Assembly (NCBI GenBank): GCA_951406725.2
Contig: CATOCA020000001.1
Span: 2,418,001-2,482,000 of the forward strand
Length of the DNA: 64,000 bases
Reading direction: 5' to 3'
From: Octopus vulgaris
Taxonomy: Eukaryota
Positions 28,080-54,942 of the stretch are shown here, piece after piece (the stretch's first letter is position 1; every line of letters starts with the position of its first letter). Both the position numbers and the translations under genes were made by a program. Below the pieces are notes generated by a model, which searched no databases, had not been told where the DNA came from, and saw only the letters and a program-made list of their open reading frames with translations.

Positions 28080-28178
28080 AATGACACTGCGAAAGATAAC
28101 AAATTACACGTGGCCAAGGAATTGAACCAATATTTCACACGTACCAAAAAACCAAAAGATGGTTTGGCAGTCATAGCA
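28080..28178 (+). CDS. DCLK: DCLK-family kinase, C-terminal tail exon
   Basis: ttcctag acceptor and GCA|gtaagt donor. Translates NDTAKDNKLHVAKELNQYFTRTKKPKDGLAVIA, resembling the vertebrate DCLK tail (...VAGKIKKHF...GVSVIA). Confidence 0.88.
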
Positions 28179-28769: not shown

Positions 28770-28998
28770 TTTTACTTGTTTCAGTCATTTGACTGCGGCC
28801 ATGTTGGAGCACCGCCTTTAATCGAGCAACTCGACCCCGGGACTTATTCTTTGTGAGCCCAGTACTTATTCTATCGGTCTCTTTTGCCGAACCGCTAAGT
28901 GACAGAGACATAAACAACCAGCATCGGTTGTCAAGCAATGCTAGGGGAACAAACACAGACACACAAACACACACACATACACATACATACATATATAG
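28770..28998 (-). mobile_element. SINE family A 3' half
   Basis: Tail and post-microsatellite body only, abutting the hammerhead unit. Confidence 0.85.
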
Positions 28999-29180
28999 AG
29001 AGAAGTAAATATATGGCACAATGAAGTACCGATATTTACTGGAAATAGCGAACGTAATAATACGACGCTCATGTATAACTTCACCGCGTATGTACTAGCA
29101 AAAATGCGTGTGTGCAACAAACTTGAAAAAAATTGTCTTACCTCCAGGGAGAACATCTGAAAGATGAAATACCTAGAAAA

Positions 29181-29270
29181 GGATAATATGGGACCGGCGC
29201 CGGTTTCAGATTTTTCAAGATATGCCTGCCCACATATACTTGATCTATCTTCATCAGCCAAACATATACC
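29181..29270 (-). ncRNA. Type I hammerhead ribozyme (antisense copy)
   Basis: Same fold on the minus strand. CTGATGA is the complement of 29251-29257; stem III is ACCGGCGCCGGT; predicted cleavage between 29192 and 29191. Four differences from the + copy, all pairing-compatible. Confidence 0.9.
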
Positions 29271-29851
29271 ACGACAACCTTTCAGATGTTACCACATTAA
29301 TGCCATTACACTCGACTGAAACGCCGAAACGCTAACAGCACGAGAACGGTGAAGAAGTTTCAATAAATTAGTAATGCAATACTAGAGTATTGCTTTCCAG
29401 TAAAGAATAGCCCGTGAGGGAAAATATACAAAGAAGTAAATATATGGTACAACGAAGTACCGATATTTACTGGAAATAGCGAACGTAATAATACGACGCT
29501 AATGTATAGCTTCACCGCGTATGTACTAGCAAAAATGCGTGTGTGCAACAAACTAGAAAAAATTGTCTTACCTCCAGGGAGAACATTTTTGCTATTACAT
29601 ACGCGGTGAAGCTATACATTAGCGTCGTATTATTACGTTCGCTATTTCCAGTAAATATCGGTACTTCGTTGTGCCATATATTTACTTCTTTGTATATTTT
29701 TCCCTCACGGGCTATTCTTTACTGGAAAGCAATACTCTAGTATTGCATTACTAATTTATTGAAACTTCTTCACCGTTCTCGTGCTGTTAGCGTTTCGGCG
29801 TTTCAGTCGAGTGTAATGGCATTAATGTGGTAACATCTGAAAGGTTGTCGT

Positions 29852-29941
29852 GGTATATGTTTGGCTGATGAAGATAGATCAAGTATATGTGGGCAGGTAT
29901 ATCTTGAAAAATCTGAAACCTGCGCAGGTCCCACATTATCC
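29852..29941 (+). ncRNA. Type I hammerhead ribozyme (sense to DCLK pre-mRNA)
   Basis: Stem I 5' arm ATG-tt-TGG; CTGATGA at 29865-29871; stem II AGAT/ATCT extended by TCAAG/CTTGA and ATATG/TATAT; GAAA at 29915-29918; palindromic stem III ACCTGCGCAGGT; GTC cleavage triplet ending 29930; stem I 3' arm CCA-CAT. Confidence 0.9.
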
Positions 29942-30004
29942 TTTTCACCATCCTCGCAATTTTTTCTAGTTTGTTGCACACACGCATTTTTGCTAGTACA
30001 TACG

Positions 30005-30683
30005 CGGCAAAAGAGACCGATAGAATAAGTACTGGGCTTACAAAGAATAAGTCCCGGGGTCGATGCTGGTGTGTTTACGTCCCCGTCACTTAGCGGTTCG
30101 GCAAAAGAGACCGATAGAATAAGTACTGGGCTTACAAAGAATAAGTCCCGGGGTCGATGCTGGTGTGTTTACGTCCCCGTCACTTAGCGGTTCGGCAAAA
30201 GAGACCGATAGAATAAGTACTGGGCTTACAAAGAATAAGTCCCAGGGTCGATGCTGGTGTGTTTACGTCCCCGTCACCTAGCGGTTCGGCAAAAGAGACC
30301 GATAGAATAAGTACTGGGCTTACAAAGAATAAGTCCCAGGGTCGATGCTGGTGTTTACGTCCCCGTCACTTAGCAGTTCGGCAAAAGAGACCGATAGAAT
30401 AAGTACTGGGCTAACAAAGAATAAGTCCCAGGGTCGATGCTGGTGTGTTTACGTCCCCGTCACCTAGCGGTTCGGCAAAAGAGACCGATAGAATAAGTAC
30501 TGGACTTACAAAGAATAAGTCCCAGGGTCGATCCTGGTGTGTTTACGTCCCCGTCACTTAGCGGTTCGGCAAAAGTGACCGATAGAATAAGTACTGGGCT
30601 TACAAAGAATAAGTCCCGGGGTCGATTTGCTCGGCTAAAGGCAGGCGGTGCTCCAGCATGGCCGCAGTGAAATGACTGAAACG
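30005..30683 (+). repeat. SINE-A 3' half with a ~93-bp internal segment repeated ~7 times
   Basis: Units ggcaaaagagaccgatag...ggtcgatgctgg...gcggttc; the array ends in the normal SINE-A tail. Confidence 0.9.
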
Positions 30684-30779: not shown

Positions 30780-30863
30780 TCGACTGCTCTCGATAAAGGG
30801 TCCAAGTACTTCCGGGGCCGCGGAGCCTTTACTGTGCACCCGAAACAGGACGAAGTCTTTTAA
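30780..30863 (+). CDS. DCLK: DCLK-family kinase, last coding exon
   Basis: Long T tract plus gcag acceptor. Translates STALDKGSKYFRGRGAFTVHPKQDEVF* and matches vertebrate TTALDKERQVFRRRR at the same exon boundary. Confidence 0.88.
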   Translation, partial: STALDKGSKYFRGRGAFTVHPKQDEVF

Positions 30864-53796: not shown

Positions 53797-54942
53797 GTAT
53801 TTTTCGATGTTATTATTATTATTAAGGTCATTGCCTGGATTCGAACTCGGAATCTTGGGGTTAGTAGCCTGTGGGCAATTATGGAGTGAATTTTATGGGT
53901 TATAAACCTAATATTTCCCTATCCTTCCTTAATACCGGTTCCCATATGCTGCTCATATCTGCACTCGGTCTGCTTAGGAGGATGTTGTGTCTTTGCATAT
54001 GTGCTGCTTCTTTTAGTTTTCCTATTTTCCAGTGGTGTTCTCTGTCTATTATTTTAACTTCATCCCACCCGGATGAGGTGGTCTCCATTTTTCCATACAT
54101 GATCACCTATACCCGTTTTATCAATATCTCCTCGTGTCACAGCTTTGCGATGTGCGTCTACCCTTATTTTGAGGGGGAGGCATGTTTCGCCTTTGTATAA
54201 CCTACCACAGCTGCATGGGATGGAGTACACGCAGTCTTTGGTCATATTCTCTTCTATTGGTGGTTTAACTCGAAGGAAATATTTGCGAAGTGTTGTATTA
54301 CTCTTGAATACTGTCCTGATGTCATATGGACCGCATATCTTTTGTATCTTTTCGGAGAAGCCTTTCACATAGGGTAGACAGACTGTGGACAGTTTATTGG
54401 TTTCATCCTCTCTTTTCTTCATAATTAGAGTGGATTGTATATTTTGGGGTAGTTGTTACTTAATAGATTGTTACTTAGCTTGATCATTTCTTCGTTGTGG
54501 GTATCACAATCGCTACTTATATTCATTGCTCGATGTTTTAGGCACTGAGCAATCCCTCTCTTTACACTGTATGGATTGTAGGAATTGAAGTTGAGGTATC
54601 GTCCGGTGAAGGTCGGCTTGTAGTATACGGATGTCCTGAATCCATACTTGGTGCATGTTATTAATACGTCCAGGAATGCCAGCTGATTGTATTTCTCCTT
54701 TTCCATTGTGAACTGTATGGATGGCTTTATTGAGTTCACATGATATAACAGCACTTGGCCATATTCCTGGTGGGGCCAGACTATAAACGTGTCATCAACA
54801 TATCGCAGACATAGGGTTGGTTTTAGTGGTGTTGATACTAAGATTCACTCCATAATTGCACACGGGCATATGACGCAGTGGTTAAGAGCGCGGGCTACTA
54901 ACCCTAAGATTCCGAGTTCGATTCTCGATTCCAGACAGGGAT

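Follow-up and report, generated by a model that had tools for sequence, protein, structure and literature searches.

Penelope-like elements (PLEs) are described as leaving tandem and inverted copies with tails (PMC8557442), and with purified PLE protein, reverse transcription was initiated at two internal positions, which delimit the tail, and both strands were extended (PMC11167929). Among hammerhead-bearing retrozymes, only one of nine Xenopus dimers is reported to have cleaved in vitro (bioRxiv 10.64898/2026.07.22.740005), and in cephalopods 235 Rfam hammerheads are given for the giant squid genome (PMC6962438). The copying of retrozymes by PLEs, and the role of the ribozyme and of the circle, are posed as open questions in PMC4209133, PMC11167929 and bioRxiv 10.64898/2026.07.22.740005. 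The retrozyme class is known, and the PLE footprint is known qualitatively. In the literature on octopus or cephalopod hammerheads, retrozymes and helix III duplication we found no description of the family or of the stem III switch presented below (supplements and repeat databases may list it), and the supplements of PMC4209133, one file excepted, hold no octopus entry.

Here we analysed a 64,000-nt stretch of the Octopus vulgaris genome (assembly GCA_951406725.2, contig CATOCA020000001.1, positions 2,418,001 to 2,482,000; hereafter the window), a preliminary description of which had reported two complete type I hammerhead ribozymes differing at exactly four positions. Both statements held up. 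Core, helices and cut sites could be located in each motif (Table 1), a strict type I descriptor gave two matches in the 64-kb window against none in 100 doublet-block shuffles, and the two 90-nt copies differ at 29898, 29921, 29926 and 29934 only. The motifs have the CUGANGA core, GAAA, a NUH site and helices I–III with helix I open, as in type I hammerheads. In the plus-strand motif, stem I comprises 3+3+4 bp, the core CTGATGA lies at 29865–29871 (29251–29257 in the minus-strand motif), stem II (29872–29914) is built of 4+5+5 bp with a 3×3 internal loop, and GAAA, stem III and GTC occupy 29915–29930; stem III is 12 nt long in both motifs, closed by T-A in the plus copy and by G-C in the minus copy. 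Two kinds of search had been proposed for these motifs: the descriptor recovered both, whereas the Rfam hammerhead models matched neither, at the gathering threshold or at E up to 10, likely because of the long stem II. The hammerhead fold is not the minimum-energy structure of the isolated plus copy, which is the weakest of the 12-nt copies that were fold-tested, and the folding z-scores of the window copies (0.18 and −0.13) are in neither case better than those of shuffles.

Table 1. Features of the window discussed in the text (u, position in the 431-nt unit; positions are those of the window).
Feature	Position	Strand	Remarks
Penultimate coding exon, DCLK kinase gene	28080..28178	+	Octopus bimaculoides protein mapping
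Left arm	28993..29586	-	594 nt, 1.38 units of 431 nt; unit at 29156-29586
Minus-strand hammerhead, type I	29181..29270	-	antisense to DCLK; predicted cut after 29192
Tail segment in left arm	29363..29423	-	61 nt, u164-u224, between the two fixed 3' end sites
Head-to-head junction of arms	29584..29586	.	3-nt overlap
Right arm	29584..30007	+	424 nt, sense to DCLK; stops at u72
Tail segment in right arm	29699..29759	+	61 nt
Plus-strand hammerhead, type I	29852..29941	+	sense to DCLK; predicted cut after 29930
Locus-specific junction	29947..29957	+	11 nt in place of 41 nt of unit
Tandem array	30005..30626	+	94-bp repeat, 6.6 copies; abuts right arm
Last coding exon, DCLK	30780..30860	+	96% identical to C-terminus of Octopus bimaculoides protein P0001
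Broken PLE remnant	54063..54844	-	RT and endonuclease-like pieces; abundant old family, 3612 candidates; no Pfam match

The two retrozyme-like units that had been recognized are present; that the two motifs are the head-to-head arms of one inverted insertion had gone unremarked. The placement in the last intron of DCLK is confirmed, as the element lies between two mapped coding exons, the second of which ends the protein and so makes this the last coding intron. The window kinase exon matches Octopus bimaculoides DCLK at 93%. The left arm has its 3' end at family site u163, joined to a TA-rich tract. The right arm is fused directly to an array of 94-bp repeats, putatively of SINE origin, and its usual 3' end is missing, having apparently been removed by a deletion. 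The unit spacings noted previously, 431 and 401 nt, are both real, but the second does not represent a 401-bp family variant: it results from the junction in which 11 nt replace 41 nt of unit, and among 217 loci compared this junction was found only in the duplicates of the locus on contig C31.

On that contig the locus is duplicated, with five other copies whose flanks and introns are 93–95% alike. Comparison of the duplicates shows an inverted central segment and a reassortment of the stem III states, a pattern that we read as probable recombination between the arms. An empty insertion site, sought among the C31 duplicates, was not found; one of them has a larger deletion and one reads as garbled. 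The penultimate DCLK exon (28080–28175) occurs eight times at 100% protein identity, in each case on this 12-Mb contig and on no other, a count that stems either from genuine amplification of the DCLK 3' end or from a fault in the assembly. A further DCLK exon, at 15694–15798, encodes two kinase C-lobe residues that depart from the Octopus bimaculoides protein (L to P and K to H), and the duplicate to which it belongs may be decaying. Shortly past the cut site on the minus strand lie an acceptor-like tract and, after it, a strong splice-donor-like motif (29136–29144 and 29566–29574). These motifs recall the 5' UTR intron of Penelope, and the sense-arm junction removes both; no spliced joint at the donor-like motif was present in the contigs.

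The window copies belong to a dispersed non-coding family with a 431-nt unit of 39% GC, in which the longest frame of the repeated unit is 119 codons and no copy was found to continue into an ORF. The 2.8-Gb genome holds at least about 220 ribozyme copies. An exact pattern for the 12-nt stem III context gave 159 matches, two of the 100 listed being unrelated by eye; the exact T-A form of stem III is present in 58 copies genome-wide and the exact 6-nt form, which defines subfamily C, in 32. A DNA search of the genome returned 1396 candidates, 40 of which were scored, and 30 loci of an older subfamily, E, were fetched, mostly 80–86% identical to the unit. Copies diverge by 1.4–1.9% from their subfamily majority. 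The proposal that the window samples a cephalopod retrozyme-like, PLE-linked, non-coding family with structure-conserving changes is supported by these copies.

Ends and pairs were counted over 123 non-redundant loci, chosen by ribozyme context and comprising 197 arms (overlapping loci, C31 duplicates, subfamily E and the distant family D were left out). The 5' ends are scattered, with variable truncation. At the 3' side, 175 arms end at two fixed sites 61 nt apart, 101 of them at u159–166 and 74 at u215–225, with 22 ending elsewhere, and of the 175 fixed ends, 149 are followed by (TA)4 or longer. More than half of the loci (66 of 123) are head-to-head inverted pairs, of which 38 overlap by 1–5 nt; in 51 of the 66 the two arms occupy different sites, the remaining 15 include an atypical end, and in no case do both arms end at the same site. 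Six more loci with short partner arms show the opposite end type in every case, so that all 57 classifiable pairs use one site each. Arms longer than one unit (68 of 197) continue head-to-tail into the same 431 nt; the longest is 907 nt, or 2.1 units, no long array was seen, and only four arms cross the cut site twice. In run X15, summed contig depth over window positions 29630–29740 peaks at about 650,000, as against about 25,000 over the ribozyme, hinting at many short copies or relatives missed by ribozyme-based counts.

How well is the ribozyme scaffold preserved across this family? In 24 hand-picked copies (21 distinct) of subfamilies A, B, C and E, 97.9% of cells are paired, and the intact 5' core is kept in 101 of 113 copies. 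Both partners have changed in five pairs, of which stem I and distal stem II hold two each and stem III one, against none or one in slid controls, and the covariation score is 0.137 compared with 0.079 in shuffles, a score that relatedness inflates. The covariation claimed for the two motifs stands in part: compensatory pairs do occur across subfamilies, but their number does not exceed that in column shuffles (mean 4.6; 293 of 500), and the double changes reflect only two lineage splits. A single double change within a palindrome is weak evidence by itself, as template switching can produce it; the stronger evidence comes from comparison with the older subfamily, relative to which stem I and the long stem II show four compensatory changes. 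Family D keeps the AGAT/ATCT base and the internal loop on an unrelated distal stem sequence, and this likeness, together with the conserved changes, points to the long stem II as a conserved scaffold. Family D itself (L185–L196; eight motifs among 22 pattern matches) is ORF-less, with a unit of about 440 nt, a long bipartite stem II, a 6–7-bp stem I, an 8-nt palindromic stem III and a GUA site. The idea that it shares the tail of the 431-nt family was dropped, the tail being present in only one of eight fetched loci.

The window copies had also been taken to represent structurally selected variants. This is borne out insofar as the G-C/T-A difference in stem III marks two amplified subfamilies, but not for the two G-U swaps: among 121 copies, 29898T occurs in four and 29934T in six, the latter number matching the six arms of the duplicated C31 locus with that base. 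Both swaps thus look like rare private changes and are not supported as selected.

Stem III itself appears to record a change of state. Subfamilies C and E have a 6-nt stem III, consisting of an A-U pair plus a palindromic tetraloop (6 nt in 23 of 23 scored E copies). The 12-nt form was surveyed in 113 copies, a sample enriched for the T-A version because loci matching that version were among those fetched: 55 copies have a G-C closing pair and 53 a T-A one, 5 have lost the pairing, and the loop takes eight forms. Both forms seen in the window are perfect palindromes, but palindromy is not a conserved feature of the 12-nt stem III, being absent from 53 of the 113. In nine 12-nt copies, with the loop GTCC, stem III is a literal tandem duplication of CCGGTC. 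A tree was built from 49 sequences (42 of 139 arms, one more duplication-type copy and six E copies), with stem III removed and rooted on E. It places C at the base and all 12-nt forms in one clade (SH-aLRT 87, bootstrap 93), within which four of the six duplication-type copies branch first and subfamily B is nested (91/90); the other two lie with or inside subfamily A, in a tree whose branches are short and whose copies recombine. As judged from these sequences, the 12-nt stem III likely arose once, by duplication of CCGGTC, and intermediate copies survive.

By nearest-neighbour folding, a monomer of C would have to pay 11.7 kcal/mol to reach the active fold and one E copy 11.3, compared with 2.1–5.6 for six 12-nt copies; none of the copies tested has the active fold as its predicted minimum. 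The model predicts that the duplication switched the ribozyme from dimer-dependent to monomer-capable cleavage. Under this scenario the older E and C ribozymes, with their 6-nt palindromic stem III, would have required a dimer, tandem duplication of CCGGTC would have created a 4-bp hairpin that could allow cleavage as a monomer, and later the hairpin loop would have drifted and the closing pair changed from G-C to T-A in subfamily B. Contigs carrying three other species labels (runs X7, X12 and X16) cover 21, 27 and 30 of 30 unit bins, respectively; that of X16 combines a 6-nt stem III and a GUA site with a C-type stem I arm, and is a possible E-to-C intermediate.

With regard to mobilization, two fixed ends, a tail, an inverted partner and a (TA)n target amount to a PLE footprint. 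We suggest, with considerable confidence, that the locus is an inverted two-armed insertion of a 431-nt retrozyme, likely a non-autonomous passenger of a PLE (likely of Neptune type) that was copied from one continuous RNA, likely a circle, at two fixed internal start sites. The first step would be transcription of a source copy longer than one unit; the hammerhead would then cut the RNA after unit position 395, and the monomer would be ligated into a circle. A dimeric PLE protein would then nick both (TA)n strands, the 3' ends would prime reverse transcription at u163 and u224, and the two cDNAs would join head-to-head via 1–5 nt of microhomology. The composite picture, in which a record of a stem III switch on a long-stem-II scaffold missed by Rfam goes together with a PLE dimer that copies one circular RNA from two ordered sites, one per nicked strand, is offered more tentatively, as somewhat short of an even chance.

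The polymorphism of the copies bears on the template. Over 24 variable sites, successive direct passes through the unit in a single insertion disagree in 9 of 174 comparisons, where random copies would give 73.5, and the arms of one insertion disagree in 12 of 507 (213 expected). With mismatches at 3 of 22 sites, the two arms in the window are less alike than most pairs. Moreover, among 74 arms that were not search-selected, 23 of the 24 that reach u415 cross the cut site at u395. Read-through and low within-insertion differences together indicate a template continuous across the cut site, with one genotype per insertion.

A young Neptune-like PLE is present in the genome. Among GIY-YIG matches, for which 150 of 6136 candidates were scored, 16 of the 150 lie in 781-aa frames with RT and GIY-YIG, and the linker CGRPNCGIC fits the Neptune motif as given in PMC8557442. 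This element (L156–L165, e.g. L159:368-4068) has a 4.7-kb unit, a 30-nt tail and two overlapping frames, of 479 aa (no Pfam match over the cut-off) and then 781 aa (RT and GIY-YIG), together with a hammerhead-like motif, identified by eye, with a U3-A8 core. An older Neptune-like family (L198–L217) has a tail of about 52 nt and inverted pairs, and its motif, also seen by eye, combines an A3-U8 core and a 2-bp stem II with the same 6-nt palindromic stem III as subfamily C. No autonomous element sharing the 431-nt unit was found within this scored set of 150 candidates, 20 PLE loci being without BLAST similarity to it, and the tails of three PLE families matched the unit no better than shuffles. 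A fourth tail looked alike by eye and was rejected, as the fraction of shuffles scoring as high was 0.28–0.92. Also rejected as partners were the three Neptune-like families from the GIY-YIG search (no similarity to the unit), the PLE remnant of the window (whose ribozyme differs and which, over 15 loci, shows no resemblance to the unit) and a PLE piece lying head-to-head with the copy at L063, which is a separate older element. At L090, L025, L009 and L063, fragments from other Neptune-like families adjoin copies of the unit; in two cases a single (TA)n tract lies between fragment and copy, which suggests that the elements share target hotspots.

Two other accounts of the copies retain a PLE and differ in what was copied. 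The copies might be 5'-truncated terminal stubs of an autonomous PLE and not a separate non-coding family, a reading already disfavoured and, in our view, very unlikely. The shared footprint is what it would lead one to expect, most solitary PLE ribozymes have been attributed to truncated PLEs (PMC4209133), and our loci were chosen by ribozyme context from about 1,400 candidates that were scored only in part. Stubs, however, fit poorly with the 68 of 197 arms that run on head-to-tail into the same 431 nt and with a longest open frame of 119 codons; PLE protein matches occur at only 7 of the 162 family and 30 E loci taken together, and the five of these that were inspected (L063, L009, L090, L104 and L025; not L112 or L049) proved to be separate neighbouring pieces. 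Nor was an RT plus GIY-YIG ORF found between terminal repeats in the family copies. The passenger reading could also hold with an uncut tandem transcript as template, the hammerhead being dispensable for copying and no circle being formed. We consider this rather unlikely, while granting that read-through and a single genotype per insertion fit a homogeneous tandem source equally well, that in PMC11167929 unprocessed RNA is the main in vitro substrate with no RNA-seq ends at the cut site, and that ribozyme mutants inserted normally in the same study. Against it, the longest of the 197 arms spans 2.1 units, the core and helices have been preserved between subfamilies that differ by about 15%, implying that the fold is under selection, and abundant circles are reported from related mussel and coral elements (PMC7229834). 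Of the two, a circle is the likelier template, because no array exceeding 2.1 units was seen and circles are formed by related elements. The unit is covered by contigs from runs presumed to be RNA, but their depth profile resembles that of a large run of unknown kind, and this coverage was counted neither for nor against expression; a joint 401 nt back in the contigs, considered as a circle junction, is explained by the unit's own sequence.

Selection by the host, or on the ribozyme, can be questioned in the same way. One arm lies sense in the last DCLK intron with an intact core, and the inverted pair would make a long double-stranded RNA, features that could suit a ribozyme pair co-opted to cut or regulate DCLK pre-mRNA. 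In a predicted fold of that pre-mRNA, however, 92% of 29100–30007 is paired (co-transcriptional folding lies outside the model), and the sense ribozyme pairs throughout with 29182–29270 of the opposite arm, so locked that its active fold would cost 106 kcal/mol; changes peculiar to the window copies weaken the ribozyme, and the duplicates of the locus have reassorted or in part lost their arms, one of them being without the region. Co-option is accordingly most improbable, no sign of it was seen in the window copy, and that copy is, on the folding model, likely a passive relic whose location in DCLK looks incidental. As for the G-C to T-A change in stem III, it could have arisen by one-step template switching in the palindrome and spread by hitchhiking, with no selection on the ribozyme. 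Both forms are perfect palindromes, the change is a single event at the base of subfamily B, and a half-changed form exists in one duplicate of the window locus. On the other hand, the closing pair is mismatched in only 5 of 113 copies while the loop varies freely, and four other double changes lie outside palindromes; we regard such switching as quite possible, though we lean away from it.

For the PLE passenger, then, the family counts constrain the copying mechanism: 57 of 57 pairs use opposite sites, each insertion carries one genotype, and the cut site does not halt copying. The family also provides a natural ribozyme series (E, C, duplication intermediates, A and B) on one scaffold, which makes the dimer-versus-monomer question testable with wild sequences.

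Compared with metazoan non-LTR retrozymes (PMC7229834, bioRxiv 10.64898/2026.07.22.740005), the octopus family shares a short, low-GC (39%), ORF-less type I unit continuing head-to-tail, in a genome that also holds autonomous PLEs, and its 431-nt unit is near in size to the 350–390 bp given for the mussel retrozyme (PMC7229834). Unlike retrozyme arrays, the octopus copies are dispersed, reach at most 2.1 units and form inverted pairs at about half of loci; stem II is bipartite and 43 nt long, whereas canonical metazoan motifs have 4 bp (PMC4209133), and the family is missed by Rfam. With endonuclease-bearing PLEs (Neptune, PMC8557442; Poseidon PAc, PMC11167929) it has in common 5' truncation, partial tandems, an inverted 5' partner, a tail at one end, (TA)n targets and a hammerhead upstream of two start sites. 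It differs from them in having no ORF, in a tail of 61 nt as opposed to 30–40, and in showing no sequence link to the PLE families examined. Within the family, C and E have a 1-bp stem III plus a palindromic tetraloop, as do the dimer-dependent amphibian motifs (HHR_Amex1; PMC7229834), with which the minimal motifs of PLEs are grouped as dimer-type, while the stable stem III of A and B is like that of monomer-active invertebrate motifs (PMC7229834, PMC7761336, PMC4209133). The axolotl has two families, with 1-bp and 2-bp stems, for which the literature consulted describes no derivation of one from the other; the octopus lineage holds both stem III states, intermediates and a traceable 6-nt duplication. 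What the octopus copies add to the known systems are thus the counts, the long stem II scaffold and the traced duplication in stem III.
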